Source of the DNA: Bilabrum cf. latius
Taxonomy: Eukaryota
NCBI GenBank assembly: GCA_965178125.1
Contig: OZ237743.1
Span: 558,001-622,000, forward strand
Direction of reading: 5' to 3'
Length of the DNA: 64,000 bases
The first letter of the stretch is position 1. The number at the start of each line of letters is the position of its first letter. This document shows positions 27,401 to 58,692 of this stretch, one piece after another. The position numbers and the translations under genes are program-made. Below the pieces are notes generated by a model. The model had not been told where the DNA came from. It saw only the letters and a program-made list of their open reading frames with translations, and ran no database searches.

Positions 27401-27730
27401 GGCCAGGGGCCGGGCTTGGGTGGACCTGGACCTGGACTTGGAGCAGGAGCAGGGAATGGTGGGGATGGAGCGGGCGCGGGCGCGGGCGCGGGTGCGGGGG
27501 CGGGTGCAGGTGCTGCGAGCCAGCTCAAGTTCTACTCGGCGGCTGGTGGGGCGGGACAGGCGGCGGCAGGTGGCGTGCGCTCGCGTGTGATTGCTGGGGC
27601 AGGCCGGGGCCGTCGGACCGTGGCTCAGACGAAGCCCATGGCCGGAGGAGCTGAAGGGGAAATGCGGGACGGCGTGGGGCTGGGCAACGCGGGAGGGCAG
27701 CATGATGCTGCAAACGCTGAGCACGCCTGA
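24449..27730 (+). CDS. CAMK-group Ser/Thr protein kinase with N-terminal MGNCC acylation motif and Gln/Gly-rich tail; exons 24449-24695, 24802-25005, 25121-25329, 25424-25552, 25659-25674, 25872-27730
   Basis: Splicing five GT-AG introns rebuilds EK*IGRGHYGKVFRG, VAIK, ELASGGELFD, HRDLKPENLL, DFG, GTWAYSAPE and DLWSLGVITFVLLSAYHPFD. In-frame TAGs at 24677, 26774, 26876, 26939; ends TGA. Confidence 0.93.
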
Positions 27731-27900: not shown

Positions 27901-29709
27901 ATGCGCTCTCAGTTTGCCACACTTGCACTGTGTGCTGCACTTGCGATTGCAGGCCCCCTCTCCAAGCAGGGGTCGGTTGTTCTCGAGTCCTCGGGCCAGC
28001 TGAAGTATGTTGAGGGCCAGCTCGTTGACGGCGCGATTGCTCGCGGAGTGTACACGGACATGGAAGACCGTCCGGTCTCGATGTTTGGAGAGCTTACGAT
28101 CCGGACGTCGAGCATGGGCGGCAAGGCCAACGATTCCGCCCAGGCCAGGGCTGCCGGCCTGCTGGAAGGCCACCTCACCGCAACCAGGATGAAGCAGCAC
28201 TACGACAACTGGAACCAGTGGTTGGTAGCCCAGGGTATCCCCCACGACAACGGAACGATCCCTGCCAAGTTCTACACCTGGTTCGGTCAGCAGAAGTCAT
28301 GGTCGGAGACGCAGGCTCGCGAGAACTTTGGAAAGGACGCCAACTGGACCCTGTCGCATCTCGTCGACCAGCAGTTCGAAGGCCTCATGCTCGGCTACAA
28401 CGCTGAGGCGGATGCCGACAAGCAGATCTCTCCGTTGGACCACTGGATGATCGTGTAGGGCATGGGCGATCTCCTGAACCTCAACACGATCCTGGACGAG
28501 GACCCGCGGCCGGTGTGGGAGCGCTTCGACAACACTGACGACCTACTGTCCTGGATGCGGGCCACGAGCCACTGCTCCGGGTTCGTCAAGGCCAATGGCG
28601 ACCTCAGCTTCCTGGCTTCGGCCCACGTGGCGTGGTTCACCTTCTCCTCCATGCTCAGGATCTTCAAGCACTACGAGCACGACTTCCAGACGGACGCCAT
28701 CAAGGCGCAGGACGTGTCCTACTCGAGCTACCCGGGCCTCCTGTCCTCCCTGGACGACTTCTACATGACTGGAAGCACCAAGATGAGCATGGTGCAGACC
28801 ACCAACAGCTTCATGGTGCCATTCACACCCGACGCCAACTCCGTGCTCGCGTGGCAGCGAGTGCGCATGGCCATGGCAGGCGCGGACAACGGCAAGGAAT
28901 GGTGCCAGATCCTCGGATTCCACCACAGCGGAACCTGTGAGCACTGTACCTCAATGCAATGCAATGCAATGCACCTATTGTGTCCCCCTACTCGAGATGC
29001 GCTCCCCCGACACGCCCCCCCATCCGCTTTCAGGTGCGCCCGTACCCCATCGATTCCATTGGCATGCGCAGACACCAACGCCTACCAGGTGACCGACTAC
29101 AAGCTCTTCACCCCGAGCAAGGGCCTGGCCAACAACACGCTCTGGTACTGTGAGGAGATCCCCGGCGAGATCCACATGGCCGACGTGACCCAGCAGCTTG
29201 AGAGGGGCTACTGGCCCTCCTACAACGTCCCCTACTTCGACGACGTGTACGCCAAGTCGGGGTACAGGTCTGCTCTCGAGTTCTGGACCAAGAAGGCGGG
29301 CAGCGACCCCAGGGCCCTGCAGAACCTCGCCCAGCTGGGCTACCAGACCGCCCCTCGCGCCAACATCTTCCGCAGGGACCAGGGCAAGGTGGACGATGCC
29401 GAGGGCATGAAGTGGATCATGCGCGAGAACCACTACAAGACGGACCCCTACTCCAAGGGCTCTCCCTGGAACGCAATCTGCTCTCGCGGCGACCTGGCGG
29501 GGTCGGCCGACGGTTGCTACGACGGCAAGATCACGACCTTCGACCTGATCGGAGAGCGCAAGGCCTGGGCCGTGAACGGGCCCACCACGAGCCAGCACAC
29601 CCTGGCGCCCTTCTCGTGGACTGGCGAATTCGCTAAGCTGCCTCACGAGGGCATGCCGACGACGTACAACTTCACCTTTGAGCTCACGCAGCCTGACCCC
29701 CAGGTCTGA
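27901..29709 (+). CDS. Phospholipase B-like protein (PLBD1/PLBD2 family, Ntn-hydrolase) with signal peptide; exons 27901-28936 and 29072-29709
   Basis: Signal peptide MRSQFATLALCAALAIA; GDLLNL, HCSGFVK (nucleophile Cys), SMLRIFKHY, SYSSYPGLLSSLDDFY, YWPSYNVPYF, PRANIFRRD, AICSRGDL, GCYDGK. One TAG at 28456. Removing intron 28937-29071 restores SGTYTN. Ends TGA. Confidence 0.92.
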
Positions 29710-30514: not shown

Positions 30515-33226
30515 TCACAGCGAGCAAGTGCCCGTCACCGATGCGCCTTCAAATGACATCCCGCTGGGTAGCTGTACGGTTGCAGTTAGCACCTCCTGCT
30601 CCTGCACATTGCACGTCACTCCAGCCTTTGACGACGCAATTCCCTGCTGCTCATCACTAGAATACGCAGCCAGCGGGATCCCACCCACCAGTTGCAGCGG
30701 GATTGCGTGTCCTGCGCTTGGCGGGTCGGCTGCTCGTATCTTGAGAACAAATGGCTTAGGTGCAGGGGCCTGCAGCGGATCTGCCACGGTAATTTGCACA
30801 GCTTTCTCGTTCGTCGCGCCGGTGTTGTTCCACCGAATCAAGTACACTCCAGGGGCGGGCACCTCTGCGATTCCGCTGATGGGGGCGCCGTCGGGCAGAG
30901 GGAAGGCCGAAGCAGACACGGCCTGGCCGACGGGCGCATCTGGCCACACGGTCAGCGCCAGCACGCCGCCGGCGGGGAGGCCTCCGGAGGCCACCAGCGA
31001 GGCAGACACAGCAAGCACCGTGCCGTTGGCGTAGCTCACGGCCCTAATCGCCCCCTGCGTGTCCTGGGCCACCTTGCCGGCATCTTTGGCGCCGGTACCT
31101 GCAATGCGCTGCACCCACGCGAAGCTGGCCGGTGCAGCGCCATTTCGTCTTGCCGATGGCCCGGCGGCGGACCAGTTGCCGTGGCTCAGCTGGGCCTGGA
31201 AGACGGCCCTCTGCACGCGTGCGGGGCTCTGCGGGGTCGAGGACCGCTGCCAGTCCCCCCAGCGGTTGCCGGACTCGATCGCGACCGACTGAGCCTCGCC
31301 AAAGCTAGGCTGTGACGAACCGAGCGACTTTGCTCCTGCGGACCCATCTTGATCGAGCAGAGTGAGGGGCACAAACACTGACCCGTCGTGAGACACCCAC
31401 TGCACATCGGATCCCTCGTAGGTCAGGTTGCCGGTCAGCGGGCCGGAGGGACTGCCCCCCTTGGATGCTAGGCCCACCTGCGGCATGTAGTCATCGCCCT
31501 GTGGGTGTGGCGGGCTCTTGGGCAGCAGGGACTGCTGTGTTAGCGTGGTGACCACGGGGAACTCGTCTGCGCTGGCGGCTTTCCTGGCCCCAGTCCGGTC
31601 CTGCTCATGCCTGTTCTCTAGCCGCAGCCCGTGCACGAGCATCACGGCAGCACCGGGCAGCAAGACGGACATGCGCCGGCTGCGCAGGGCGGTGGATGAC
31701 TCAGCTGATGCACCGAAATCCCCAGACTTCTGGTCGTACGCAGTGACCGCAACGCCAGCGCCAGCGTTGGGGGAAGACCCGTGCAGTATGATCCCACCCG
31801 CCGCCCCGTCGCCGTCCCCGAGACCACCCACGAAGGTTGTTAGTCCCATTTGCTTCACCTTGGAGCACTCCACCTCCCCCGGCACCCGCCATTCAGACGT
31901 GCCGGGGAACCCTCGCCAGTCCAGCACTGGCACGATGGAGCCGCCGTAGGTCACCTCATCGCCGTACTGGAGCGCCTAAAGCACCCCATCCGCCTTGTGC
32001 CAGCTGCGAAGGCCCTCGGAATTGACGCACTCTGCGTTGTACGTGCGGGTGGACCAGCCCCTGTACGACAGCAGCGACTGCTCCGTTCCCGCCACCGTGT
32101 AGTCGCTGGTCCAGAAGTGCCGCGCCACGCCGGAAGTCAGCGGGGGACAGTTGCCCTTGTCCGGCACCAGAGCCGTGGCCATCTACTTCAGGCGAGCAGC
32201 CAGGATGGCCGCCGTGCCGTTTTCGTTCGCCAGCACCACGAGCTCAGGCGCCTCGCCACTGGACAACGAGAGCGCTTGGTCGCTGGATCGGGTGATCTCC
32301 CTGCCCCTGGCGAGGAGGTCCCAGTGCACCTCGGAGTTCCAGTCGCCCGAGGATTGCCATGCCTGGGAACGCATCGACGGCCACTATCCCAGCGTGATGT
32401 ACGACGAAAGGAGGCTTAGCTTGTCCTGGGGAGGCGCGACCGGAGCTCCCATCCCCTGCACAAGAGAGATTAGGCCGAGTAAGTCCCCGGAGAAGCCCGC
32501 GCCGTACGTCCCGGTTTGTACCAGCTGTCCGTGCTGATGGAATGATCGATCGCGCTGGATGCCGCCTGCAGGGTCGCTGCTTACGACGATGCCTTGCCAT
32601 AGAAGCGAGAAAGCCTCGACCACAGCCGACGCGTTGCCGGTGATGCAGCCGCGATTGGCCTAAATGCGGAGCCCCCACTCTCGATTCTGACCGACCCATG
32701 TACCACCGCCTTTTCTCCATGCAGCTCTCTCCATGACCTTCTTGCCGTACGCGATCTCGACGTCAGAAAGCGAGCTCGTGGGTTTGATGAGGAGGTAGGC
32801 CTGCATCAGGTCCATGGGGATGCCAATGTCGTTGAACCACCAGTTCGGGTTCTAGAAGTCGTACTTTGCCCAGAACGCGATTCCGCGATGGATCGTTGCC
32901 AGGATCGCGGAGGAGTTCTGCACGCTCGAGTTGCACTTCGGGCATTCATGGGCCTTCGCCATCGTATCCAGCCTGGTCCAGTGATCTGCTGCCTTCCATA
33001 GGGATCTGTCCTCATCTTTGTAGTCAACATCGGACCATGATCCGTTTGCTTGCATGGATTGGCTCCATTTTAGGCCGATACCGCAAGCCTCTGCGCATTC
33101 GCTGCCACCCAGATACTGTGCGTGCAGCCTCCCCGAAAGCTCCTCTAGCCAGGGGGGAGGGCTGGCGGCAGCAACACTTATAGTGAATACACAAGGGTAA
33201 GCTGCTAGCAAAATCAGTGACAGCAT
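30515..33226 (-). CDS. Secreted polysaccharide lyase family 8 (chondroitin AC / hyaluronate lyase-like), apparently intronless; TAG read as sense
   Basis: Five same-frame minus ORFs joined across TAGs at 32852, 32660, 32384, 32183 and 31976; ends TGA at 30515. Signal peptide; NGSWSDVDY, NWWFNDIGIP, GQN, GIQRDRSFHQHG...GTYG, GREITR, HFWTSDY, ECVNSEG, DWRGFPGT, FVGG. Confidence 0.88.
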
Positions 33227-33244
33227 TGTTTTTTCCAGAATGAG

Positions 33245-33931
33245 ATGATACGCGATGGATCCGCCAGACTAAATCATTTTCTTGTCATTTGGAAGTGCAC
33301 GCAACTTTACGATCAAGTTCACCGGGCTGAGCATGAGCGTCACGCCGAAACGAAGCCGTGGCAACCTGATGCCGGGGATCAGAATAGAGGGAGGTCGCCC
33401 GCCTCTCTTCGGAAGGCATGGGCGAAGACAGCTCTCGCCCTGGAGCCCTGGGACGAGAAGCTGGAGCACACCAACAGGGCCAAGCCAATCGTCGAAGGCG
33501 CGCTCATTCGGATAGAGCGCACGATTGCACGGTCCTCGGAACGTACAGCTGTCAAGGTGCTGGCCAACCAAGTGGTGCAGGTGCTCAGAAACCAGCTGCG
33601 CCAGCAGGAGCAACTGACATGCAGGCAGTGGATGCGTGGTGATGCGGCGGCTGCCTTAGCCGCCACGGCCACGCAGGAGCTGATAGCGGCAACCAATGCG
33701 AACGCCCGACTACAGCGACGGATTTTCAAGCCCCACGGCTTGCTAAAGGATATAGAGAGGCAATGGGCCAAAGGCATGAGCGCGTGCATGCTCGCCTCTC
33801 TGAAGGATCGTGAGACGCAGAGACGGTCATGGAGGAGGAAAGGGTGGGTCTCGACCGGGGAACCCGATGTGGGACTGGACCGCGCCTTGTGCCGGGCACA
33901 CGCTCCGCACCTGTATGCTTTCTCCTTGTGA
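33245..33931 (+). CDS. Hypothetical 228-aa ORF, possibly a gene or mobile-element remnant
   Basis: ATG-to-TGA ORF, basic and helical-looking, no recognised motif; its ATG is under 20 nt from the divergent PL8 start codon, which is suspiciously close. Confidence 0.35.
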   Translation: MIRDGSARLNHFLVIWKCTQLYDQVHRAEHERHAETKPWQPDAGDQNRGRSPASLRKAWAKTALALEPWDEKLEHTNRAKPIVEGALIRIERTIARSSERTAVKVLANQVVQVLRNQLRQQEQLTCRQWMRGDAAAALAATATQELIAATNANARLQRRIFKPHGLLKDIERQWAKGMSACMLASLKDRETQRRSWRRKGWVSTGEPDVGLDRALCRAHAPHLYAFSL

Positions 33932-34726
33932 AGGCAACAGGCTGGGGGCCTGTGGGGGACCACACTGATGGCGAAGAATGGGAACTCGGCGGCATTGGCT
34001 GAGAACGGGGGGCCTTTGGCCTGAAAGGGTCGGGGGTCTTGTAGTCCTTTGTTTTTAGGGCTCCTCTGGATCTAGGTGATCACCCAAACCCCCTCGGGGG
34101 CGACGGTGCATCTGGGTGTTTATGGAATCTTTACCCAACAATGTATTTCTGTATTTCTGTATTTCATTCATGATGAACTGTTTCATCGTGGCCTTCTGAA
34201 CAACAGCAGCTCGACAATTCCTGGATGCCTACACGTCTACAAAACCATTCAAGTATGGCGGCCCAACCCACCACTTCTTCACACGCCGGCGGGCCAAGGT
34301 GTGGCACGACTGCTCCAGCACTGCCACTGCCGCATTGGCGATGTGCAGCGCTCACGGCCATCGGTACAGGAACGCTAGGTTGTCAATTTTGTCCTCTCGT
34401 GTGCCACTGAGCCTCTCCCAGGGTGCTTGTTGATGGCAGGATAGTTGATGAGTCAATGATGACCCAATGGTGTGGTGCGTGTGGCCGGGGTGTTACGTGT
34501 GCGAGGTACTCCGTTGATGGCATCCGAAAGTCTTCTCCAAAATCGGAGTGTACTAGGGATCACCCCTTTTCCTTCTTGGCATACTACCAGATTTTAGGAT
34601 AGCAAGCGAACGAATATTGATTTTCGAGCAGGAGACGGATGTCTTTCGCCGAGTAGCGTACACATAGCCTGAGGCATGAATTCCGATATAATCAGTTGGC
34701 CGAGTGCATTCATCCATTCATCCGCT

Positions 34727-37700
34727 ATGCGCGCCTTGACGGTACTTTTAGCGATAACAGCGGCGTATGCATCCATACGTTACGATGTGTCTCTGCGCGC
34801 GGGCGCTGGTCAGGCGTATAGCATCAGGACCTATCGAAGCCCCGGCATACTCAGTGCCAGAGTTGAGGTGAATGGCACGTGGGGTCCTATCCGGCCCATC
34901 TGTGGCGACGGATTCACACAGAGCGATGCTCTCGAGTACTGCAAAGCGTAGGATAATGCGGGGCTGGCGCAGTTTGCCCTGGTGCCCTCTGCTAATGCGT
35001 CTGACGCTGAGGTCACGACTTCGTGTACTGCCGCTAGATGCGAGTACGCGCACTCTCCGGGCGCTTGCACCTCTGGAACCATAGTTGGCCTTGAATGTGC
35101 CAAGGTAGAGCTCGGGATCGCTCGCGAGGCGGACCCTAGCAAGGAGCCGCTGAACAGGCCAGCTCCTACTCGCGTGCTACCCCCTCGAGCGAGAGGCATC
35201 GGGGCGATGTGGTCCTTCAACGGAGATGTGTGGCGCTATTTGTGGTAGAATAAGTTTGACGATCCCAGTAATCGGACTGTGAACAACTTCTGCCGGTTGG
35301 TGGGATTTCCGGCGGGCTTGGTGAGCTCGTCCGGTGGAGGGATCACTCATGGCGTCGAGTACATCGACTACGGATCTTCTGGCCGCCAAACTCTGGTCAA
35401 GTCGTATTACGGCGTTATGAAAGACTGTGACGTTGAGCTCATGAGCATCAATGGCTGTAGCGACCTTGCCGATTCCTGGGTTGCAGACGTTGGTGAGGGT
35501 TAGCGGATCGAGTGCTCCAGGGTTCGGTTCCACACGGACGGGGGCAGCTCCGGCGGCATCTCTGCCGAGGCCGTCGCTATCGAACACCCGCTGGCCACAA
35601 CGGCCAGTGGTATGCTCCTGGCCGATCGATTCCTCGAGCACCTGCCCTCTGGATGCGCAGACACAAACGGAGAGACGTCCGGCTGGGGCAGCACCACCGC
35701 CACCTCGGGTCCTGTGTGCGACCAGAACATGGACGATGCCACGGCAGACAGGGTGTGCTCGTGGATGGGCTTCGACAGAGCATCGAGCTACACCAAGGGA
35801 CGAGACTTGTCCTCACACGGCGCCGGCGCGTCTTTCCCCATCGGGGCACTGTCGTGCGCTGCAGATGCGCACGTGCCCGAGGACTGCGCCATGCAGACCA
35901 TGAAGGGCGCCACTGGCGAGGCGCGGTCCGGGGACACCACGGGTGCGTGCGCGCTTCCGGACGACGGCACTGCCGCCGAGCCGCTGCCCAGCGAATGCGG
36001 CGGCACCAGCGGAGTGCAGCTGACGTGCGAGCGGGAGTGGATCGTGAGGGTCATGCCGGAGTCGCACGGTGGCCAGCCGGCCGAGGACTACACGCTGTAC
36101 ACGAGCCAGGACACTTTCGATGGAGTCGTGATGGTGCAGGTGCACGGCCAGCCGCAGCACCGGGTCTGCGCCGCTGAAGCAGACCTCGATGGAGATGCCG
36201 GCCAGCGGATCGGAGATGCCGTGTGCAGGTCGATGGGGTACGCCTTGGGGGCATGGAAGGGCTCCGTGAGGACTGGCAAAGGACCCGCTGTGTATGACCC
36301 TTCGGTGCCTGTGGGTGTTCACCTGCGGTCCTGCAGCAGCGGCGCGAGCTCTCTGAGTTCCTGCCAGCACAATCTCCTAGAGCCGTCACTGTCGTGGTGG
36401 GAAGCAGGCGACACGTGCGCCAGTCGCGGCCTGGTGGACGTGCGGGTCAGCTGCCAAGAGAGAGAGCTGGCGCTGATGCGATACTACAAGTTCACGGACG
36501 ACCAAGCCCTGATCCTGACTCCGCAAGCACAGCCAGGTGGCAGTGCTATCCCGCCGTACCAGGGACTGCTCGTCTGGAAGGCTCCGCGAGAGGGGGCCTA
36601 CAGCCCTCAAGTGTGCTCACCGTCTAGCATGAGCCCAGAGCCGGATGCAGCCATCGCCCTGGTGTGCCAAGAGCTGGGGTATTCCGGCGCACCGGGGACC
36701 TTCAGGATCCGTCCACCGTACGACTTCCGCTATCGCTACACGCAGGGCATGGGACAGACCCTGGGCATGGGTGCTACAAACATGCCGCTGGGCTGCCTGG
36801 GCCTCGACGAGGAGGAGCTTACCAGCATCGGCGACTGCTCCCTACTGAGCTCGTACAGCGCGTGCGGCAACCGTGCGGCCTACAGCGTGCAGTGCGCTAC
36901 ACCCACGGTGGAGCTGCGGGAGGGCCAGCAGGGCGTGCTGGAAGCGAGGCTGACTATCCCGGCAGAGGCTGCAGCAGGCAGTGAACCGGCGGTGGGCGGG
37001 TGGGGCCCCGTGTGCTTCGAGTCCGGCTAGACTCTAGAGGAGACGGCATACGATGGGTATTGCCAGGCCATTGGCACATCTACTGCTGCTGTCAAGTACG
37101 AGCAGCCGAAGCAGATCGACGACGTGCCCACGTCAATACAAGGATTCACAGCGAAGAACCTAGAGTGCAGCGGCGGGGACTGCACGGCAGACGGTTACTT
37201 CGAGCACGGGTGGGAACGAGCCTGGTCGGTGGGTTGCGTGGTGGTGCAGATCCAGTGCGATGCAGGCTCCAGCGGCTACGTGGCGTTCGGGCGCGGGAGT
37301 GGTGGGTATGGAGATGACGGCAGCAGCGGCGGGGGGAGTTGGTGGGAGGATGACCGGCAGGGCGGGGGCAGCTGGGCCGACGACGGGTGGTCGGACGGAT
37401 ATGACAGCTTCGATGAAAGTGGAGGTGGTGGCGGTTTTGGTGAAGGCGATGATGGTGGCGGTGGCGGCGGCGGTGGCGGCGGCGGTGGCGGCGGCGGCGG
37501 GGGCGGCGGCGGTGGCGGCGGTGGAGAAGGGGGTGCCGGCGGGGACGGGATAGGGGCAGACGGCCAGTCTACCGGAGGCGACGGTGGAAATGATGGTGAT
37601 GGCGACGGTGATGGTGTGGGTGCTGGTGCGGTTGCTGGGATCGTGGTTGGTGCGGTGGTTTTGGTGGGCATCGGTGCCGGCGTGGCCTACTTCATGCTTG

Positions 37701-37939
37701 GAAGCAGCGCGGGGGTGGCGGGAACAGCTGCCACCGCTGGCGCCGGTGGCGCGGCTGGGCTCGCGCCTGCATCCTCGGGCCCTGTCCAAGTCAATGTGCA
37801 ATTCGAGCAGCTGTCCGGTCCCACGACCGCGGGTAGTGACTCCTTCGGCAAGACGAACCCGTTACAACAAGCCCAAGGTTTTGCGACCGCGAGCTCCGCC
37901 CCTCAGGCTGGTTCAAAGCCTGGGGCCGGATTTGTGTGA
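34727..37939 (+). CDS. Type I membrane protein with divergent scavenger-receptor cysteine-rich (SRCR)-like repeats and Gly-rich stalk; TAG read as sense
   Basis: Signal peptide MRALTVLLAITAAYA; TAGs at 34949, 35246, 35501, 37028; ends TGA. SRCR-like motifs RVEVNGTWGP..ICGDGF, VCDQNMDDATADRVCSWMGF, AVCRSMGY, LVCQELGY, WGPVC; TM AVAGIVVGAVVLVGIGAGVAYFML. Confidence 0.8.
37454..37523 (+). repeat. (GGY)n trinucleotide run encoding a poly-Gly tract
   Basis: Directly visible GGC/GGT run inside the SRCR-like CDS. Confidence 0.9.
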
Positions 37940-38116
37940 GCGAGAGCGCTTTGCCTGGTCTTGTGTGACTCTGGCATCAATCACGGACTGACATTAGTCA
38001 CGCCTAGTGATCGTGCATGGTACGTTCGGGCTGCTTACCGCCCTGCGTCTGCAACCCTCAGCGATGATCGTAGCGATTGCTTTAACCTTAAGACGGCCTA
38101 CTGCAGTACATACACA

Positions 38117-41100
38117 TTAATGCTCTTTCAATGGATGGGCAACAAACCAGCTGTGCGTGTGGCCGTCGTCACCCCCGACCGTGACCCTCACGACCCCCTC
38201 CTGGCCTTCCTCCCCGTACGAGGCCCACTGGCTGGTTCCAGTTTGAGCGTCCGTCCAGTAGTACGACTGCTCCGTTGGGTCATACAAGAGAGACCACGTT
38301 TCAAACACTGCCACCGCACCACCGTGATCACCACCTGCACTCTGCAACGAATCACCGTTCGGGCCGTGCTGCCCTTCTTCACTAGCAGCGCTCTGGCCCG
38401 CCCCCTAGCTTGCTTCAGGACCAGGCACCGCATGCCCGCCGCCACCATGCCCAACCTCATCGACAGCTTTTTCTGCATCAGCATGCGCTGCGGAACCGCC
38501 CGCTTCAGGAGACTTGCCTATCCCGAGAGCATCGTGCAACTGTTGAATCTGTGCCAGCTCGGCCTCTTCCAAGGTGGCCCGTTTCTCATCTGATACCTCA
38601 GCGCTCTGAGCTATCATCCCATCGGCGATGGACCGAACGTCTTGCAAGGTGTATGGCGCATGCAGGCTCTCGGCACTGCCAGGGGCAGGCTGCTGCGCAA
38701 GCCATGCATTCAGCATGGGCCTGTCGACCTCGTTCTCTGGCTGCACCTCGTAGCCAAGCCTGTTTCTGGGGTCTTCATGCCAGAGGAGTGCCTCTTGCGC
38801 GGCGTGAACTGGGTGACCAATGGCAGATCCATCGTTGTGCCAGCTGCCTTCATGCTGCTGCTGGCCATTGCTGTAGCCCGATTCGGCACCGGGAGCAGCT
38901 TCACCGTCGTATCCTCCCTCCTATGTGGGACTGGGGGTGCCGAGCGCCATGCTGATGAGATTGCCAGTGGCACCATGATCCAACTCGTTCTGCATCACAC
39001 CCCCAAGTCCAGCGTCGGTGGCATGCACTGACGCAGTGCTACTGCTGTCCTACGGCGGCTGCTGCAGCTCCCTCCGTACTGTGGTGTTGCCTTGCACTAC
39101 TGCCTCCTGTCCACCAACGGCTCCACTGACAGAGACGTTGCGTCTTGATCCAACAGAAGCCACGCCCAGAGCTGCTTCGGCAGCAGCTCCAAACATTACG
39201 GCCTGCTTCTCGCTTGCACTTGATGGTGCCTCCAACGGACGCTCGATGCCAGTGGCTGAGGCCTCGGCCATCAGGGCAGCCTGCAGCGCTGCATTGGCAG
39301 ATTGCGGCGTGGGCGTGGGGTCAGCGGTGAAAATCGCATCGGCCTGCGGACGAGTGCCCGCCTACACTTCCCTGTGCCTGGCGAGTACCCTCACGACGTG
39401 CCTGTGCCTGTTCATGGCAGCAATCCTCTCCGCAGTGAGGCCTGCCTTATTCGACAGAGTAGAATCTGCGCCGGCTTGCAGCAGCGCCACCACCATTCCG
39501 CGCTATCCGTTGCTCGCTGCTGCATGGAGCGGCGTATCGCCCCGTTGGTCCGGCATTGACACCGTGGCTAAGTCATCATCACGAGAGCACAGCAGCATGG
39601 CCGCCTCGGTCCTGCCTGTCGCGGCCATGGTGAAGAGGGGGCACCTGCCCACCTTGTCAATCGCGAAGATATCGCCACCTGCTTCGATCAGCTTCTCCAA
39701 GCAGGCATCAGTGCTGGCGGCGTGCGTGGGCGTGATCCCCTACAGGTTGGCCTGCGTTGCGCGGGCACCGCTATCGAGAAGAATAGATAGTGACTCGAGA
39801 TTACCTCGAGCGGCGGCCACGTGGACTGGAGTGTCGGCGTTCTGATCGCCTGCATCGACCCAAGTGGGCTGAGTGTCGATCAGCACGGCGCAGCACTCCA
39901 TGTGATTGCGAGCAGCCGCGAAGAATAGAGGTGACCGACCCAAGTCATCCGCTTGGTTCAAGCCGGACATGTCTCCAAGCATAAGCTGCTGCAGGCACTC
40001 CATGTGTCCGCAAGATGCAGCGAAATGGAGGGCGTATGCACCGGCGCCCAAGCAGAACTGGCAGGGTGCCTCGCCAGGCCCAGGCATCGGAAGGTGGTCA
40101 GCGGCATCCTCAGCCGGTTCTGCGACCGTAGGACGATGCTCGTGGTGCTCCGCATAGCCGGCCTAGTGCTGCTACCGGTGGTCGTGCTGGTGGTGCTACC
40201 CATGATGCCAATCATGGGATTGATGATGTGAGTCGTCTGTCCAGTCAGTGACGCCGTGCTCTTGCTACTGGTAGTGCTGGTCAGCTGCAGCGTTGCCATC
40301 CTTGTGCTCGGAATCAACCCCTGTGTATCCAGCAAAGTCCATGGGGGGATCCTCAGCGGGCGTTTGCGGCACTGCTGGGAACACGCCATTTGAGTGAGGC
40401 TCGGGCTCGCCTGCGGGTGTCTGCGGCACCGCAGCTGCGACAGCCACGAAGGCTTTGCCCGACTCTGTGACGCTAGGCGGGGTCCCAAGCGGCGTCTATG
40501 GCACCACGAAAGCATGCGATGAGCCTTCCTCGGCCTAGTGAGGGGCGTGCGTAGACTATGCCTCTGCTCGATCGTCCATCTCGCCGTCCCGACTGGTCTC
40601 ACTGTTCGGCTCGGTTTGTATCTGCAGAAGTGCGAAGCCAGGCGTGGACTGGGCTGCTAGTGCAGGCGCTTCGCTACTTGCTTTACTGCCAGTACTGTCT
40701 TTTTCAGTGCGATCGATGCTGACTGTTTCTTGGAGTGCGGGTGACTTGACGTCCTGCGTCAAGACTGCCGGTGCTGGGTCAGGGCTGCGATCTTGGCCGC
40801 TCGGGGGTCGTGCAATTGGTGCCTCGATGGACTGGGGCTCCCGGGGTAACTTATTGCTAGTTGCATTCGTGACCACTGAAGCGGCAGCCACAGCTGATGC
40901 AGCAGCGGTGGGGGCGGTTGATGCCAGCGAACCAGACATGCTACCGCCTTGTAACGCTGATGAGGGCACAGGTGCGGACAACCGGCTGCTTGGGTGCTGA
41001 TCAGCCACTTTAGGCTCAGTTGCAGTCGGGGTTGTCTCCTTTGCAGAAACTGTCTGACTTGCTCCATTGCTAGGAGCTGCTCGTACTGACGCTGGGGCAC

Positions 41101-43795
41101 TATCGGTAGAAACGGCTGTCTCCTGCAAAAGACCAGCCTATGAGCACGGACCTTGCTGCTGCTCAACTTTGCCATGTGCTTTTGGATTCGCATTGGAATC
41201 AGGGGCAACTTGCGACTATGGGACGCCTTCATCAGGACTGTCTACCAGGGCCGCGCGGCCGCTGTTAGCCTTCGGGTCAGAGGAAGACTAGGCGGTGGGC
41301 TAGGGTACACTACTCGGTTCACCAATTGCAGACTTCTTCTGCTAAGAGGTAGTAGGGTCTGATCTCTGTTCAGTACTCTCGTGATGAGATGTGCCTGAGC
41401 ATGCTGCTGATAGACCTGCAGCACCTTGCAAGGCGCCAACGTGATCGGCACCCGCACGTATCGCAGAGGCCCCAATCATAGCGATACCAGCTGCTGGTGC
41501 TTCCACTGGTCTGCCTGTATCGGTTTGGTCTTGCCTTGGGCTCATGGCAGTCGATGGTACATTCGAGTGCACATTGGTGCGATCAACAGCATCCGGAGGC
41601 ACAGTCATAGAGCCCACTTCACTGGAGATATGGGAAGGTTCCCCCAGATCAAATCCTAGTGCTGCACTGACGGCTTGGGAGGCAGCATCGCCAGGCGCCG
41701 AGCTATGCGGCTCCGACAGTTTGTCGTCCACATCAAGCTGAGACAAGCGACGCTGGCTAGTGATGTCGCCTGACACGTGCGCGACCCCTGGTGCAGTCTG
41801 ACTGCCCCCATCTGACTGGCTGACCGGCGGCTCGTCGTTGGGCTGGCTGGTCAGCTGGATCTTTGAAGACTATGAATGTGACCCAATCGTTGTTGCAGCC
41901 ACGGACACGGCGTCAGTGTTGCCGCGCGCTAGCTCACTCGATCCTGCTTGGCTCGACGGTCTAGTTGTGACGCCGTTGTCCAACGCCACACCCACACTTG
42001 CGGCAGCGTCCAGGGCTACGTGAGGTGTCCTAGGCAGCGCTGGCAGAGTTACGACGCTGCTTCCTTCACGCCTAGCATCCTGCGCCAGACCGCTGGGACT
42101 ATCTGCACCGTTGATAGCTGCTGCGCCCGACTATCTCCCTTTGCTCGGTGTGACGTGTGGCTTCATTGTCTCCCCGCCGCTTATGCGCTTTCGCCTGCGG
42201 TCTGCATTCATGATCGAGCTGGGCAACCTAGCTTGTTCGTCTTGCTGACCTCCAAGTTGCTGCACATCCATGGCTCCAAATTGTAAGTGACTACCTTGAT
42301 GCCGCGCACCCGAATCGTTGCTATGATCCAAAGGTATTTGCCTTGGATTCTTACCGAGCGGGTCTGCGACACCGTGCCTTGCCTGCGTTGGTGGCTGACG
42401 TCGAGCAGCATCGCTCGCTGTCGAGGCATTCACCGGTGAGACTGCAGGGAGGCGATCTGGCTGGTGACCAGAGGTAGCAGGAAGTATACTTTGGTTCGTG
42501 TCACGGTTGACTGTACCATCAAGAGAGTCCACGCTGGCCCTTCTTGTTCTGGGCTGCAATGGGCCAAGGCCCGGCTGATTTGCTCCGCTGATGGGGCCAT
42601 CCTTCAGATGCAGTGCGCCGGCTTTCGCTGATGATTGTACGCCAAGGCTATCTAGGCCCAGATTCGGATCCCTGATTGCCGCCCGACTGCCGCGATTGGG
42701 CGAGACGTCAGCTCGGCCTAGTTGAGCAGGCAGGGATGGCAGCATGGCTTTCCTTGCCGGTGAGGGCGAGGACAAGCTGGGAAGTGCGGCATTGGCAGGC
42801 GACCCTCCCTGCAGCGGAGAGCCCTGTGCTGGGGCCTGTCTTGCCCGCAGTTGGCCCAGCCTTCCAAGTGTCTTGTTTCCGCTGCATTGGGTCGGGTCAG
42901 TTACCGCAGCTCGCGACCATTGGTCCTGCTGCAGCTCTTTGACTCCCTGCACGGCTGCAAGCCGTCGTGGAGGCGAAATCATTCCCTACGTCTACTCTAT
43001 TCTGCCTGAGGGCTTCCCCCCGGGTGGGGAAGAGGCCAAGGAGGTCGCACCACCACCGAACATGAAGGTACGCGGTGCGAGCGGTGAGAGCCCGGGCGGC
43101 GATGTGCCGGCCCCTACAGTGCACACCTGGCCTTGTAGCGGACTAGACATCGGAACAGGGGCGCCTTCTATCGCCTAGAGTCTGGCAGGTGTCATGCGGC
43201 GAGGTTCTTTGCGCTACGCTGACCGATGGGCTGCGGTTGCGAGGCCGCTGCGTGGCACGCGACCGAGCGCATGCCCCGGAGTCGCATTTGCAGCTCGGTC
43301 CGGGCTGAACAACTGAGACATGGGCGAGGCATAACCACCAAATGAGGGCTGCTTGGATTCTTCCATTGCGGCACTCCGCACAGAACTTGCAGTAGTTTGC
43401 GGACCTACAAGGCCGCCATGTTGGGATTGCCGCCGTCTCTGTGGAGAAGCAAAAACGTGTGAAGGAGAGTCCACCCGAAGTGGAGTCACACCTGGCTAAA
43501 AGCCTCCTTTACCTCCATGTGATGCTGGTAATTCTGAGCTCCCGCGCGAGCTCCGGCGGCCAGCACGACTTCCGAGTCCTGCACGCTGAAAGGCTTGCGC
43601 AGCATCTGGTGCAATCCCACTCAGCAAGTGTCCGTGCGAAAGATGGCCCAGCCCAGCATCAACTCCGTATCCACCTCCCTTCCCGCCTTGATGGCTCGCA
43701 GAAGGGCTCCCAAAAGTGCCCCAATCATCAGCGTCCGCTCTGGTTAATTTGTCTGGTGACGAAAACATTGCCTGAGCACTACTAAATTCAGACAT
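38117..43795 (-). CDS. Ankyrin-repeat protein with long disordered N-terminus and C-terminal WW-like domain (~1890 aa); TAG read as sense
   Basis: Eleven minus ORFs share one frame from ATG 43795 to TAA 38119-38117, with over 20 TAGs and no internal TAA/TGA. Ankyrin motifs ALHFAASCGHMECL, GRSPLFFAAARNH, DTPVHVAAARGN, GDTPLHAAASNG*; WW-like WSLLYDPTEQSYYWTDAQTGTSQW. Confidence 0.85.
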
Positions 43796-43990
43796 CCCGC
43801 TGCTGTAGGGTGACTTTGTATCAAATTAAGTTAAGCACTGAATACTACGGGACAAAGTATGCTCTCATCGTGCTACATTATTGAGTTTGTGCTAACGCCT
43901 ATTCGTTGTATGCTAACGAACGTTCGGCACAACGAGCGAACCGGTGGTGACGATACAACCCCTGCTTTTTCCAAGCGTAAATTAGAGTCC

Positions 43991-46030
43991 ATGCGGCTCG
44001 ACAATGTTGACTCGAGTAGCAGCGAGATGTTCAAATATGCAAGTTTGACTGCAGACGTTCGCCATGGGATCAACGAAGCTGAAGCTGAAGCTGGAATGGA
44101 CATCGAGGAATCTGGAGGAGGAGGCGCACACCTCGGTTGGGCAAAGGCAGGATCAGCTCTCCTGCTACTGTTTGCCGCCCTTCTTGGCGGCGTTCTATCG
44201 GTCTGGGTCAGCGGACCTGATGCCGCTACTGCGGGGATTTAGTATCTAGTTCAGTTAGGACAGCGTTTCTGCTGCTGCCAACAGTGCCGCAGCTCTCGAT
44301 AGGCTGCGATGCCGTCGTTGAGAGATCGTTAGGTTGATCGCATCAGAGAAGATGCGATAGAATCAGGTTCTCCAAAAGCTACGGTCAGCATGACGGTTGC
44401 CGGAGTGCCAAAGCCACTGGAGCTACCAGGGACGCGCAAGGAAGATAGCCAACGGGTCGATGCATCCAGAATAGGTGACTAGAGCGAAGGTCTTGCTCTA
44501 GAGGAAGTGTCTCAATGCCTCGTTCTAGCCCAGCTTCTTGCAGCTGGGGTTGTTCTTGCCGCTGCTCTGGTGCATCTGCTGCCTGACGCGGCCGATGCGG
44601 CGAGCACGCTGCTGGGCTCCTGCGAGGGCGACGAGGACTGCGACGAGAGCTTCCCGATCGGGCACGCGATCGCGGGTATCGCATTCGTGCTAGTGGCGGG
44701 CGTGGACGCGGCGGCGCACGAAGCTGTGCATGCTTCGGTAGCCGGTGCCGGGTCTACCACACTAACACCAACTGCCAACGCAACCACCCCCATGCTCACT
44801 CCCAGGGCAGTGGCATCGCCCGGCGGTGTCACCAAGCGACTGCTGAAGCGACTGCACCCCTCCGTCCAGAATGGTGAAAGAAATCACCGAGAGTTGTCGG
44901 GAGCTGATGCACGCGCTGCCCTGGGTGCTGCCGTGGATGTTGTGCACAAAGAGGCCGGCGATTCGGCACGGGGCGGGAGCACGAGTCCAGTCATGGAAGG
45001 CAGTCCCGGCCACACAGCCATGACCGCGACTGCATCGGCTTCTGCAGCGGGGAGGGTGACGAGTGCCAATGCCGGAGGTACTTCCAGGTTAGGTGCGAGG
45101 GCACCAAGCTACGGCTCGGTCGATCGTGATGGTGGACAGGCAGCGGGGCGGGGCGGGTCAGGTGATGGCAGCGGTTCCGATGATGCATCGGCCAGGATCA
45201 GGGCGAGCACGGAGCAGGTGCTCGGTGGCGAGCATGGGGATACTGAAGATGAAGAAAACGAGGAGCTCGTGCCCTCCTTCGGCATGTCCAAAGCAGACCA
45301 GCTCGGGGCGGCCAGCACGGGCGTGATCTTCGTGCTGGCTCTGGTGCTGCACTCGTCACTCGCAGGTCTGGCCGCGGGAGCCGCAGGGGAGCCTAGGGAA
45401 CTGTTGGATGTGATGGTGGCGCTGGTCGCACACAAAGGACTCGCTGCCTTTGCTCTGGGGCAGCAGCTGCTGCGGGCAGTGGCTGGCCTCGGCTGGCGCA
45501 TGGCACTGGGTCTCTTCTTCGTCTTCGCGCTGTCCACACCGATCGGCGTGGGTGTGGGGGCTGGGCTGCGCGCAGCTGCCAGCGGCTTCAACGCAGATGG
45601 GCCGCTGGTGGGCGTGCTGCTGGCAGCTGCAGCCGGCGCGTTCCTGCAGGTGGCCATTCAGGAGATGGTGGCGCCTCCGCTGGGCAGAAGGCTGCAGGTG
45701 GGGGAGCATCCGTGCTTCTGCTGCATGCCGGGCCGGTGGTCCTGTTGCGGGGAAAAAGGCACCGGGAGGACACCGCGTGGTGGTTCAGGAGAGGGCGAGG
45801 GCGGCACTGGTGGTGGTGGCGCGATGCATGCGGGTGCTCGTGATGACAGCCACGGCGATGACGCCGGGACGACCGGTTTCCTGGCTGGAAACAGGACCGT
45901 GAGCGATACTGTGGGAGGAAGGGACGGCGGTGTGTCCGGGGCATTTGGCGCTCTTCTGTGGTCTGGGAGCAAGATCGCTGCGCTTGGGCTGGGATTTGGC
46001 GCCATGTCTTTGCTGGCAGTGTGGGTGTGA
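43991..46030 (+). CDS. ZIP (SLC39/ZRT-IRT) metal transporter, copy 1; TAG read as sense
   Basis: ORFs 43859-44242 and 44507-46030 share a frame across 4 TAGs. TM1 KAGSALLLLFAALLGG, AAGVVLAAALVHLLPDA, LVLHSSLAGLA, VAHKGLAAFALG, STPIGVGVG, AAGAFLQVAIQEMV; ends TGA. Start uncertain (in-frame ATGs from 43859 to ~44096). Confidence 0.88.
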
Positions 46031-47914
46031 TGGTTTGATGAGCGCAAGGGATATTATTATAGCGACGAATGACGGGCGAATGATTCTGTTTAATGCTGAA
46101 TTAGGCCTCAGCCAGCGGAACCTTGCTAGGCCATACGAACGGAACCTGCTTAGCGGAACAGGTTCCGGAGACTTTCACGACAGCCACACATCACATTTAC
46201 CGGGACTGGTAGTACATCAGTCGCTGCAGAAGCCAAGATAGGGTGTAGGAGTCTCGTGCGCAACATGATCCGCGGATGGATCGGATCGACCGAAAACGCT
46301 ACGGCTGAACACTACCAAGATTCGATCGAATCAATCGCGGGAATCCAGGAAGAGGAACATCCCCAAAACGAAATATTACTGGGATGGACCAAATCGGGAT
46401 CGGCTCTTTTACTGCTTGTTTCGGCGGTATTTGGAGGTCTGTTGGCGGTTGTGGCCAGCGATTCCGGACATCCAGCACGTGCTTGGACACGTTGCTTGTT
46501 CTGCCTCAAGTGTCTGTGTGCATCCGCTGCTCATCAGCGAAACACAGACCCCCATGCGGATCTCACCGTACCCATCAGGGATGCTGGAGACGGCCAAGGC
46601 TGCCAGCAGACCACTGCGACTGCTGCAGGGACGTCAATCGCGAGGCAGGAGCTCGGGGCGCGCGAGTCTGCCAGTGGCTACGGGACAGTGCAATCTGATG
46701 CCTCGAACAAGACACACGATGCCGGTACTCCATAGGAAGTGTCTCAATGCCTCGTTCTAGCCCAGCTTCTTGCAGCTGGGGTTGTTCTTGCCGCTGCTCT
46801 GGTGCACCTGCTGCCTGACGCGGCCGATGCGGCTAGCACGCTGCTGGGCTCCTGCGAGGGCGACGAGGACTGCGACGAGAGCTTCCCGATCGGGCACGCG
46901 ATCGCGGGTATCGCATTCGTGGTAGTGGCGGGCGTGGACGCGGCGGCGCACGACTCCGTGCACGCAGGTGCATTGCATGCAGGTGCACCGTCAGCAACCG
47001 CTGGCACGCCGGCCCTCCCCCTGCCTGCAACACCGCATCCTTTCGCAGCATGCCCGCAAATCACCGAGACCATGCGGGTGGCAGCTGACTCGGAACAGGT
47101 GCTCGGTGGCGAGCACGGGGATGCTGAAGATGAAGAAACGGAGGAGCTCGTGCCCTCCTTCGGCATGTCCAAAGCAGACCAACTCGGGGCGGCCAGCACG
47201 GGCGTGATCTTCGTGCTGGCTCTGGTGCTGCACTCGTCACTCGCAGGTCTGGCCGCGGGAGCCGCCACGGATCCCCGCTAGCTGCTCGGGGTTGTGGTGG
47301 CTCTGGTGGCGCACAAGTGGCTGGCCGCCTTTGCACTGGGGCAGCAGCTGCTGCGGGCAGTGGCTGGCCTCGGCTGGCGCATGGCACTGGGTCTCTTCTT
47401 TGTATTCGCGCTGTCTACACCGATCGGCGTGGGTGTGGGGGCTGGGCTGCGCGCAGCTGCCAGCGGCTTCAACGCAGATGGGCCGCTGGTGGGCGTGCTG
47501 CTGGCAGCTGCAGCCGGCGCGTTCCTGCAGGTGGCCATTCAGGAGATGGTGGCGCCTCCGCTGGGCAGAAGGCTGCAGGTGGGGGAGCATCCGTGCTTCT
47601 GCTGCATGCCGGGCCGGTGGTCCTGTTGCGGGGGAAAAGGCACCGGGAGGACACCGCGTGGTGGTTCAGGAGAGGGCGAGGGCGGCACTGGTGGTGGTGG
47701 CGCGATGCATGCGGGTGCTCGTGATGACAGCCACGGCGATGACGCCGGGACGACCGGCTTCCTGGCTGGAAACAGGACCGTGAGCGATACTGTGGGAGGA
47801 AGGGACGGCGGTGTGTCCGGGGCATTTGGCGCTCTTCTGTGGTCTGGGAGCAAGATCGCTGCGCTTGGGCTGGGATTTGGCGCCATGTCTTTGCTGGCAG
47901 TGTGGGTGTGATGG
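44503..47914 (+). repeat. Direct repeat blocks between the ZIP paralogues: ~44503-44721 matches ~46735-46953; ~45210-46033 matches ~47091-47914
   Basis: Near-identical nucleotide blocks at offsets 2232 and 1881. Confidence 0.95.
46265..47911 (+). CDS. ZIP (SLC39/ZRT-IRT) metal transporter, copy 2 (tandem paralogue); TAG read as sense
   Basis: Same motifs as copy 1; TAGs at 46733 and 47279; ends TGA. Confidence 0.88.
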
Positions 47915-48057: not shown

Positions 48058-51000
48058 ATGGCAGAAATTCAATCCGAAACACCATTTTGGACGTAAGAAC
48101 CCTCTTTGATCTGGTCCTAATTACGTCTCAATGTCGTACACATTGCTTCTTTTGGCCTTGCAATTTGATCCGTTCGCAGGACCCTTAAATCTCCTGGTGG
48201 TGCATCACACCCACGAGTCCTCCATGGGTATTGCAGCGCGCGCGTAGGTCCATTTTTGTTTATCTTTGGAGGTGTGGCAAATCGTGGCGGCGAGGCAAGC
48301 CGAGGACGATTAAGGCGAATGCGAGACGGCCGCGTCATGGATGGCACTGCGCTCGGGAAGCAGCGCACTAACGAATTGTATTGCTTGCACCTGGGCACAA
48401 GCGAGTGGGTTGGAGTGCTTCCCTGTATTCCGGAGGGCGGTATGCCGGGTGGTCTGTACGTGGGATCTGATGCATTGAGCGGCAGCGCTTGCCTCGATCG
48501 TAGCGCGTACAAGGCTGCAAAATCGGAGCAGAGGGTAGCCAAAGGGTACAATGGAAGAATCAAGTAGCAAGTCATGCCATCGTCAGGCCCTCTATTACAA
48601 GTTGCCGCGGCTACAGAGCTGGATGACGCTGTGCAGCGAAGTATTGCGCTCGCGAAAGCCGAGAGGCGAGCCAAGTCTCCCGGATCACAGTCGGACGAAG
48701 GCACCCACACAACCCCAAAACCAAAATTCAAGCGAAACACGAACACCGTGATCGCAGATCATGCCGTCCGGGGCGCTCGCCCCCCGCAGCTGCTGCCGTC
48801 TGGTGCACACGCAGTGGCAACCGGTGATCAAGCCCTACGCATGAGTGAGCAGGCCAGGCGACTGCTCCAGGTGATCACCACTAAAGGCAGGCAGGTCCTC
48901 CCCAGCGCTCGATCGAGCGCAGCAATGTGCGCAGTTGGGCGCACCTTGTTTGTGATGGGAGGAGAAAGCGATGTCTAGCTGCCAGGGGACTCCAGCGACT
49001 CGGAGGAGAGCGGGCCCGATGGGGGGAATCTCGAGTTCCAGGGAAATTCCCTTGGGGGAACCGGGGGCGCGCAAGATAGCACCACCACAGATGACGACTC
49101 TAACAGTGACAGCGGGAGCGGCGATGCCATTCGGGGAAATGACCGCGATGACACGAGAACTGGAGCGAGGTGGACCAGAAGGGCGGGCGATGTGCTCAAC
49201 AGGCAGACGGGAGGGAAGCCAGTCATGCTGGCGCAGGCGGCTGGGAAAGAAGCCCCTCCGGCAAGAAGTGCGCTTAGGAGCAGTGCGGCTAGCAAAGGCG
49301 CGCAGTCGACCGCGGGAGCCACCGGGGTGTCATTCGAGGGCACAAGAGGCAGGGCAAGGACATTGTCGTCTACTCGCAGATTGCCCGGTGATGAATCCAG
49401 TACCAGCGATGACGAACCACCGGATCCTACCGACGTTCATGTAGCTAAAGCGCGCGCCCGAGCCAAGCAGAGGCGCCGGGACCTTCAGTTTGCCGCATCC
49501 AAGGGAGGCCCAGGTGGCTTCATGAAGGCAAAGGCTGCGATGAGCGGTAGGAACCTTGCAGACATGGCAAGCAGCACGCGGAAGGGTGGTGGGGGCGGCC
49601 TCGCGCAGAGTGGTGGTGTTGGGCAGGTGCGGCGCCAGAGCCACGCCGATCTCTGGACCTTCGATTGCCAGACTTTGCGGTGGAAGCTTGCGTGGAAGGG
49701 GAGGGCAAGTGGCGCTCTAGCATCTGCTAGACAGGCCACCCCACCTGGTCCCAGTGGCAGAAGAGGGCACTCGATGAGCCTTTGGGCTGCATCTGGCGGA
49801 GAAATTGAAGCACTTGAGGCAGTGGCGAGCGGCGAGCCCGTGCCCGTGCCGAATAACTAGAGCTCCACGCCGCCCCAAGGCTCCCACCGGACAGCCGATG
49901 GCGGGAAGCCAAAGGCTGCAGTGAGGAGGGTTGGTGGCCGCCGGCGCTCAATCGTACAGATCGATCGTTCGAGCTCCGCTGTGCAGAGCGAGAGCTAGAC
50001 GTTGGAGAAGGAGAGGACGAGAAGGAGGCCAGTCCTCGTGATATTTGGGGGCATTGGTCACGGGGAGAGCGGTGTCAACTCTCGCCTGAATGACCTGCAC
50101 ATGTACGACGTAGAGCAGGAGCGTTGGCTAGCACTACCGCACCGCGTGGCAGGGACCGGCGGTTTCGGTGATGGTGCAGGGCACGGTAGTGCCTCCATGC
50201 TACCCGGTGCTCGCAGCGGCCACTCCGCCTTTGTCCACGATGGAATGCTGTGGATCTTCGGAGGCTACACCAGGTGGGGCTCTGCAAATGATCTTTGGTG
50301 CCTCCCTCTGGACGGGCCGCTGCCAGGCAGTGACCCAAAGAAGCACGGCTATCGGTGGCGATGCATCCACCGAAACGTGTTCTGGCCCGCCATGCATTCT
50401 CAAGTGACCGATGGATTCGGAAGCAGAGTGGGGCTGCACGCAGGTCAATCCGTGGGTGACGACTCGTGGCTGTTCACTCCACTGGGTGCGCAAAGTAGCA
50501 TGTCGAGCACTGGTGGGACCTCACGGCCAGTGACCGGAGGACTCGCAGCTACGTCCACTGTCCTCCTTGCGAGCAGGGCGGAGTGGCAGGTGAAGCTCAT
50601 GCAACATGCTTCCTCTCTGCTGGCAGAGGTGCCCGCGCGTCGGGCAGGCGCTGTCATCGTGCCGGATCCCCGCAATGCGGGAGCATTTTTGCTTATCGGC
50701 GGCGTGGCGGAGGGTAAAGAGCACCCCACTGTGCAGCAATGGTCGCTCGGACAGCCACCCGATCGAGCCGGGATTGCCGTGTGGCGATGTTGGGCCCCCC
50801 AGCTTATTCGCAGGCAGCTATAGCGGGAGCGCGAGAGCGCGGCCGCCGCTCAAGACCAGGTCACGGCGCTGGGCACCGTGCCTCGATGCACCCCCGCATC
50901 GCGAGAGTTCGCCGGGGTGTCACAGAAGTACTTGTGGGGTGCCTCCAAAGATGGTAAGCGGATCCGAGCAAGCGCCCGTCTGGCCCTCAGGCTCCTTGCT

Positions 51001-58206: not shown

Positions 58207-58692
58207 TCAGAAACCTCCCATTCGCCCGTCGTCACCAGAGCCTTGCTGCTGCGCCTTGAGGGCCGCCTGCTGGACGGCGTCGGCCTGCGAGAGAGGAACG
58301 AAAGTTGATCGTTGCAAGAACATGCAGTGATGCCAAGACATCGTTATGACCAAACCCAACGATTCACGATCGGTAAAGGCCTCACGGCAACCTGGAATGT
58401 GGACATGTACGCTCCGTTGCATGCTTGCAAACAGGTCTGCTGCGAGAAATCCAGAACGCCGCCACTGGCCGCCGTGGGCACGCACTTCTTGAAGCAAACG
58501 CTGACAGCTTCTTCTTGCAGCTGTTGCAGCAGCATCATCTGCATCTGTCCTGCCGCCTGCGATCACGCTAGGGTGGTGGGAGCGGTCTTGCGTGCCGTCG
58601 AGACAAGTGCGGAGATTCAGCGGCATCATGCAATCAATACAAAAGCGTACCTGCTGGATTTTTGCCTGCATTCCTGAGCCTGACGAAGCCAT
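58207..58692 (-). CDS. Small Tim family mitochondrial intermembrane-space chaperone (Tim8/9/10/13-type, twin CX3C); exons 58692-58651, 58556-58386, 58284-58207
   Basis: Spliced product MASSGSGMQAKIQQAAGQMQMMLLQQLQEEAVSVCFKKC...QQTCLQACNGAYMSTFQVAADAV...; two GT-AG introns (second donor could instead be 58391); ends TGA. Confidence 0.8.
   Translation of the reverse strand: MASSGSGMQAKIQQVRFCIDCMMPLNLRTCLDGTQDRSHHPSVIAGGRTDADDAAATAARRSCQRLLQEVRAHGGQWRRSGFLAADLFASMQRSVHVHIPGCREAFTDRESLGLVITMSWHHCMFLQRSTFVPLSQADAVQQAALKAQQQGSGDDGRMGGF

Follow-up and report, generated by a model that had tools for sequence, protein, structure and literature searches.

Few nuclear genetic codes treat UAG and UAA separately; the reports drawn on here describe them in a few ciliates and in one fornicate, one rhizarian, and one green alga (PMC5304391, PMC11687900, PMC8271138). 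UAG stands for Gln and UAA is a stop codon in Iotanema spirale, a fornicate whose primary stop is UAA (PMC5304391), and in the ciliates Protocruzia tuzeti, Hartmannula sinica, and Trochilia petrani; in Hartmannula and Trochilia, UAA makes up 93.5–100% of the C-terminal alignments (PMC11687900). UAG is reported to be read as Leu in the rhizarian exLh (PMC5304391) and in TARA ciliate metagenome-assembled genomes (MAGs; PMC11687900), and as Ser in the green alga Scotinosphaera (PMC8271138). In the code of NCBI table 6, both UAG and UAA (UAR) stand for Gln, as described for ciliates, hexamitin diplomonads, and the green algal orders Dasycladales, Trentepohliales, and Cladophorales (PMC5304391, PMC8271138). 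TAG and TAA are also reported to encode Gln in Amoeboaphelidium protococcarum (PMC6299283). Here we analyze the in-frame TAG codons and the terminal codons of the genes in a 64-kb stretch of Bilabrum cf. latius DNA (hereafter the window; contig OZ237743.1, positions 558,001 to 622,000, with coordinates below counted from its first base), in particular an ankyrin-repeat gene that ends in TAA. The window very probably uses a code of the table 15 type, in which UAG stands for Gln and both UAA and UGA are kept as terminators.

The window resembles Iotanema and the ciliates with UAG as Gln in that UAG stands for Gln, UAA is not reassigned, and the two codons are uncoupled. The mechanism proposed here would also be the same, namely a tRNA-Gln with anticodon CUA combined with an eRF1 blind to UAG (PMC5304391). 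However, the main stop codon reported for those organisms is UAA (PMC5304391, PMC11687900), whereas 13 of the 14 gene ends in the window are UGA and the DNA is 62% G+C. The table 6 codes share with the window UAG as Gln and UGA as the main or only terminator, whereas in the window in-frame UAA is absent and one gene ends in UAA. Amoeboaphelidium differs in base composition as well, with genomes of about 40% GC (PMC10608142) compared with 62% here, which excludes it as the source of the window. The codes of exLh and the TARA ciliate MAGs (UAG as Leu) and of Scotinosphaera (UAG as Ser) share with the window the capture of UAG only and, probably, UAA as a stop codon, and differ in the amino acid, which is Gln here. 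The window does not look ciliate-like, with its long genes, introns of 94–197 nt, and high GC content.

Reassignment of UAG alone to Gln is already described, and the window is a new case provided that its lineage is not already described. In open-access papers and preprints, we found no report of UAG as Gln in a GC-rich eukaryote that terminates with UGA. The importance of such codes is that they demonstrate an ability of eRF1 and the tRNA pool to distinguish UAG from UAA. A GC-rich lineage with UGA as its main stop and with UAA kept out of its genes would add an independent case in which mutation pressure acts in the opposite direction, and would show UAG capture to be independent of AT bias. 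Gene calling is affected in practice, too. Table 15 suits the window, table 1 fragments its genes, and table 6 would overrun TAA stops, adding 67 codons to the ankyrin gene.

Translated with the standard code, the window yields few long open reading frames (ORFs), and its genes are broken into pieces. With TAG as a sense codon, ORFs of 600–3330 codons with Pfam domains are found on both strands. The Pfam set of these ORFs is eukaryotic and comprises a TIG/G8/CEMIP beta-helix, a DUF1800-DUF1501 fusion, a protein kinase, phospholipase B, polysaccharide lyase 8, SRCR, ankyrin repeats, two ZIP transporters, and Kelch repeats. Fourteen gene models were defined, namely 12 long ORFs, the gene at 58840–60156, and a three-exon Tim10/DDP gene. 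The source genome is GC-rich (62% G+C over the 64-kb window), intron-poor, and gene-dense.

The amino acid read at TAG is indicated by the polysaccharide lyase family 8 (Lyase_8) gene (30515–33655, minus strand), which contains six in-frame TAG codons and ends in TGA at 30515–30517. When its protein was searched against 1.84 billion cluster representatives, four short proteins 92–96% identical to it and two about 60% identical were found (P0160, P0163, P0176, P0293, P0172, and P0221 among the protein sets). The four fragments with 92–96% identity tile the Lyase_8 protein; they span four of the window TAG sites and have Q at every one. One fragment stops at a fifth such site, where this relative probably has TAG itself. 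Two more breaks in the relative face a CAG and a GAG codon of the window. The relative appears to use the same code, its protein having been cut at each TAG by standard-code translation. The lineage thus seems to be present in public data in mis-translated form, its database proteins being cut at every TAG. In a contig scan for the DNA of this relative with the C-terminal half of Lyase_8, none of 81 pattern matches was confirmed.

Distant homologues provide a second measure. Summed over 11 columns from three genes, the BLOSUM62 score is 5.4 for Q, 2.3 for S, 2.1 for N, 1.8 for E, and -19.2 for L. In addition, some TAG codons lie within Q/H-rich runs. The best named protein homologues are 32–37% identical and taxonomically scattered, and a search of the ESM Atlas with a stretch of the phospholipase B-like (PLB) gene that table 11 can translate found no usable match.

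Some sites speak against Gln. The window GAG opposite a break of the close relative gives it no support and would require one conservative Q/E change; the PLB TAG column has N in 23 of 25 homologues; and two TAG codons of the second ZIP transporter gene (ZIP2) face Glu codons (GAG and GAA) in its tandem paralogue ZIP1, which would again be conservative Q/E changes. The PLB and ZIP sites, each a conservative change, do not outweigh four matches to Q out of four at 92–96% overall identity. Glu as the meaning of TAG, raised by the ZIP paralogue sites, is rejected on the same four Q residues and on the lower score of E than of Q in the distant homologues (1.8 versus 5.4). Taken as a whole, the reading frames and the protein comparisons show UAG to be a sense codon that stands for Gln.

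The density of TAG varies among genes. Proteins of low complexity or without annotation have more TAG (23 in 2252 and 25 in 1902 codons) than enzyme-like genes (6 in 3095, 8 in 2359, and 1 in 610 codons), a pattern that fits TAG arising mainly at weakly constrained sites.

UAA behaves differently from UAG. A first-pass annotation of the window had reported about 100 TAG and no TAA inside coding exons, and had set the code apart from table 6 on that ground and on the one TAA gene end. When each is read from its first ATG and the PLB intron is spliced out, the 14 models contain 19,088 codons with 104 TAG, no TAA, and no TGA in frame. Counted from stop to stop, the 12 long ORFs contain 18,891 codons with 105 TAG and no TAA in frame. 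If TAA were synonymous with TAG, the number of TAA expected would be the TAG count scaled by the A/G third-base ratio of two-fold codon pairs. The CAA/CAG ratio (0.316) predicts 32.8 TAA (P of finding none, 5.5e-15), and the GAA/GAG ratio (0.379) predicts 39.4. Even the lowest ratios (0.13), those of GTA/GTG and TTA/TTG, predict 13.6–13.7 (P = 1.3e-6 for TTA/TTG). Across ratios, zero TAA is thus set against 13.6–39.4 expected, with P between 1.3e-6 and 7.9e-18. The trinucleotide itself is not missing from the DNA. TAA occurs 104 times in the two off-frames of the same genes and 57 times in the plus strand of the 5,974 bases that lie beyond the long ORFs, and non-coding DNA has about one TAA per 60–100 nt.

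Because TAA had been used to delimit the ORFs, we repeated the ORF search with TGA as the sole stop codon. Seven of the 12 long ORFs are the same, and four gain 21–171 nt on the 5' side, either before the probable start or where an exon ends. The ankyrin ORF alone also lengthens in the 3' direction, and coding ORFs are never fused. The ORFs are barely altered, indicating that the absence of TAA was not made by ORF delimitation. UAA is therefore securely not a sense codon within the window. Since in-frame UAG is sense and UAA is excluded from reading frames, the code differs from that of table 6 and is very probably of the table 15 type, and the distinction drawn in the first-pass annotation holds.

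These counts bear directly on the possibility that UAA is also read as Gln, as in table 6, and is only very rare under GC pressure, with an ankyrin protein 67 residues longer that ends at the TGA at 37913–37915. That code family is common, being found in ulvophytes, ciliates, and hexamitins, and has been reported for Amoeboaphelidium (PMC5304391, PMC6299283, PMC8271138); the G+C content at third codon positions (GC3) of the window genes, 0.70, disfavors A-ending codons, and 13 of 14 genes end in TGA. However, none of the 13.6–39.4 expected TAA is found, the search with TGA as the sole stop fuses no two coding ORFs, and the extension of the ankyrin gene is non-coding by codon score, has a second TAA, and would overlap the coding end of the convergent SRCR gene by 27 nt. 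We regard this code as highly improbable for the window.

The ankyrin-repeat gene is a stop-to-stop ORF of 1902 codons (38117–43825, minus strand; Pfam Ank_2, 1.9e-28), with the first ATG at codon 11, 25 TAG, and no TAA in frame. It ends in GTT GCC CAT CCA TTG AAA GAG CAT TAA (VAHPLKEH), with the TAA at 38119–38117, exactly as described in the first-pass annotation, and this is the sole TAA that ends any gene model. The read-through frame beyond it (37913–38116, minus strand) continues for 67 more codons to TGA at 37913–37915, with a second in-frame TAA as the 41st codon. It runs, as had been predicted, into the convergent SRCR gene, the last 27 nt of which it overlaps. The SRCR gene lies at 34673–37939 on the plus strand, contains four TAG, and ends in TGA at 37937–37939. 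There are thus two TAA in 68 codons of read-through, compared with none in 19,088 model codons.

The read-through region also lacks the codon usage of the genes. Its 67 codons have a mean codon log-odds of -0.12 and a GC3 of 0.52. The score falls among those of the 13 3' flanks examined, which run from -0.05 to -0.28, and 98.6% of 282 equally long coding windows lie above it (median +0.16). In contrast, the 67 codons upstream of the TAA score +0.15 with a GC3 of 0.72. The coding signal therefore stops directly at the terminal TAA. UAA is likely to work as a terminator, a conclusion whose direct evidence comes from one gene.

Several observations weigh against this conclusion. TAA is found at just 1 of 14 gene ends, so direct evidence for UAA termination comes from a single gene, as the first-pass annotation had itself acknowledged. 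The last eight codons before the TAA have G or C at the third position in only 3 of 8. A candidate terminal intron can be drawn from a GT eight codons before the TAA (TTT|GTTGCC, 38143) to an AG at 38049 or 38043, with a length of 95–101 nt, and the spliced frame would skip the TAA and reach TGA at 37998–38000 after 16 codons. No orthologue of the C-terminus was found at E <= 0.01 among 19 candidates scored from a set of 5.8 billion proteins (lengths 77–247 aa), with a query consisting of the last 100 residues and 40 read-through residues, TAA being entered as X.

Were the candidate intron genuine, every one of the 14 genes would terminate with TGA. UAA would then be neither sense nor terminator, avoided and effectively unassigned, and UGA would be the sole stop codon. 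The length of the intron is within that of the eight introns defined in the window (94–197 nt), its donor GTTGCC is the hexamer of the second Tim10 intron, and one of its acceptors ends in CGCAG, as do five of the eight introns. The TGA met after 16 codons, the low GC3 of the last eight codons, and the TGA at 13 of 14 gene ends are consistent with such a state, too.

The splice sites themselves argue otherwise. With a splice weight matrix trained on the eight window introns, and 54 kb of intron-free coding DNA as background, the candidate donor scores -0.8 and the acceptors score 1.7 and -2.5. Sites at least as good as the candidate donor and acceptors are found 31, 8.8, and 25 times, respectively, per kb of the intron-free coding DNA, which is background frequency. 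Neither acceptor has the pyrimidine-rich stretch seen in real ones, and both are below all eight training acceptors (11.2–18.8). In the leave-one-out range (0.5–12.6), the -2.5 site falls below and the 1.7 site lies within, at the low end. Introns are rare in the window, with eight in 14 genes, confined to three genes. Moreover, one TAA end in 14 is what base composition predicts for a normal TAA stop, and UAA is still a stop codon in the UAG-only nuclear codes described in the published reports (PMC5304391, PMC11687900, PMC8271138). An unassigned UAA is therefore unlikely. It would represent a living intermediate in a stepwise change from the standard code to UAR as Gln, in a GC-rich non-ciliate eukaryote, and we consider it just as unlikely that the window holds such an intermediate. 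If it did, the intermediate-code lineage would have at least one close relative (92–96% identical) and a more distant one (about 60% identical) in public data, both mis-predicted as protein fragments.

Terminal codons elsewhere in the window are in line with UGA as a terminator. The first-pass annotation had counted 13 other genes, all ending in TGA, and the 14 models reproduce that count (13 TGA and 1 TAA). It had also spoken of a strong TGA bias. The bias is present, but it does not exceed what base composition predicts. The off-frames contain 104 TAA and 650 TGA, a TAA share of 13.8%, and at that share the probability of one or no TAA among 14 stops is 0.41. The 13:1 excess of TGA agrees with base composition, and no special cause has to be invoked. 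One TGA end has external support, as the C-terminus of the Lyase_8 protein coincides with that of the relative's protein P0160. No further TAA-ending genes were found in the 5,974 bases that the 13 long ORFs leave uncovered, where ORFs of at least 70 codons score as non-coding except for exon 2 of the Tim10/DDP gene; the frame of that exon enters a TAA in the intron, and the spliced gene stops at TGA.

In two genes a TAG lies no more than 25 codons from the TGA, at codon 1201 of 1211 (gene at 60365–64000) and at codon 3307 of 3330 (Kelch-repeat gene). They raise the possibility of a context-dependent UAG, sense inside genes and a stop near the 3' end, with some genes ending at a late TAG. However, across the 14 genes a uniform spread would place 1.91 TAG in the final 25 codons, and two are observed. 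The depletion before the stop reported for ambiguous codes of the Condylostoma, karyorelict, or Blastocrithidia type is not seen, 14 genes being too few to reveal one. A context-dependent UAG is quite improbable here, and it has no bearing on UAA.

In the favored code, with UAG as Gln, UGA would be the usual terminator because the genome is GC-rich, and UAA would be an occasional one, used here at the end of the ankyrin gene. From established knowledge of decoding, a tRNA-Gln with anticodon CUA would read UAG and be unable to pair with UAA, and eRF1 would have lost recognition of UAG and retained that of UAA and UGA. The same argument has been made for Iotanema and the rhizarian exLh, for which candidate eRF1 changes are named; the sites discussed are the GTS, NIKS, and YxCxxxF motifs and position 69, and Iotanema has T32G (PMC5304391). 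In the window, ARAGORN finds no tRNA genes, Rfam has no match, and eRF1 is absent from the Pfam results.

Eight introns with GT-AG ends were defined, five in the protein kinase gene, two in the Tim10/DDP gene, and one in the PLB gene. The kinase gene (24449–27730, plus strand; stop TGA) has introns at 24696–24801, 25006–25120, 25330–25423, 25553–25658, and 25675–25871, with one TAG in its first exon and three in its last. The PLB gene (27901–29709, plus strand; stop TGA, one TAG) has an intron at 28937–29071. This intron is 135 nt long, a multiple of three, and has no in-frame stop, so the gene resembles one unbroken ORF; left unspliced, the ORF has an insert of 45 residues relative to all 25 aligned homologues. 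The Tim10/DDP gene (58207–58692, minus strand) has exons at 58692–58651, 58556–58392, and 58284–58207 and introns at 58285–58391 and 58557–58650, which are 107 and 94 nt long, respectively. It encodes 94 codons, has a Pfam match of 5e-10 on exon 2, and ends in a tandem TGA TGA TAG. Intron 3' ends are CGCAG in five and GCAG in seven of the eight introns. Donors are GT[GA]AG in six, both Tim10 donors being unusual (GTACGC and GTTGCC). TAA is present in five of the eight introns.

The remaining genes on the plus strand all stop at TGA. They are the fibrocystin-like TIG/G8/CEMIP beta-helix gene (2–9289, six TAG), the 5' end of which is beyond the window; the DUF1800-DUF1501 fusion gene (10236–17315, eight TAG); a gene of 2252 codons with no Pfam match (17408–24166, 23 TAG); ZIP1 (43835–46030) and ZIP2 (46100–47911), with four TAG each; and the Kelch-repeat gene of 3330 codons (48169–58161, 18 TAG). 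On the minus strand lie a gene of 438 codons with no Pfam match (58840–60156; stop TGA at 58840–58842, one TAG) and a gene with long Ala-Gly dipeptide repeats (60365–64000; stop TGA at 60365–60367, three TAG), the 5' end of which is also beyond the window. TGTAA, the poly(A) signal of core chlorophytes, occurs in the first 400 nt beyond the stop in just 3 of 13 3' flanks, giving no support for a core chlorophyte as the source.

The first-pass annotation had also assigned a WW domain to the ankyrin gene. Ankyrin repeats are found, whereas Pfam makes no WW call at E <= 0.01 in the last 100 residues. The segment ETW...YYW...SQW (38120–38419, minus strand) has a WW-like tryptophan spacing, with 22 residues between the flanking tryptophans, and is without the proline that usually follows the second tryptophan in WW domains.

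At its other end, the ankyrin ORF is divergent from ZIP1, and the first ATGs of the two ORFs are about 63 nt apart (43793–43859). The 9 nt that separate the ORFs (43826–43834) are 11% GC, and each strand has a TAA there. This would mean a very short promoter region, unless the true starts lie further inside the ORFs. ZIP1 and ZIP2 are 98% identical over their last 600 nt, and their N-terminal parts have diverged. Long dinucleotide microsatellites inside ORFs give rise to dipeptide runs of Ala-Gly (about 70 repeats), Thr-Gly, and Gly-Ala; these are located at about 60600–60900, in the minus-strand gene at 60365–64000, and at 23300–23400 and 27500–27600.

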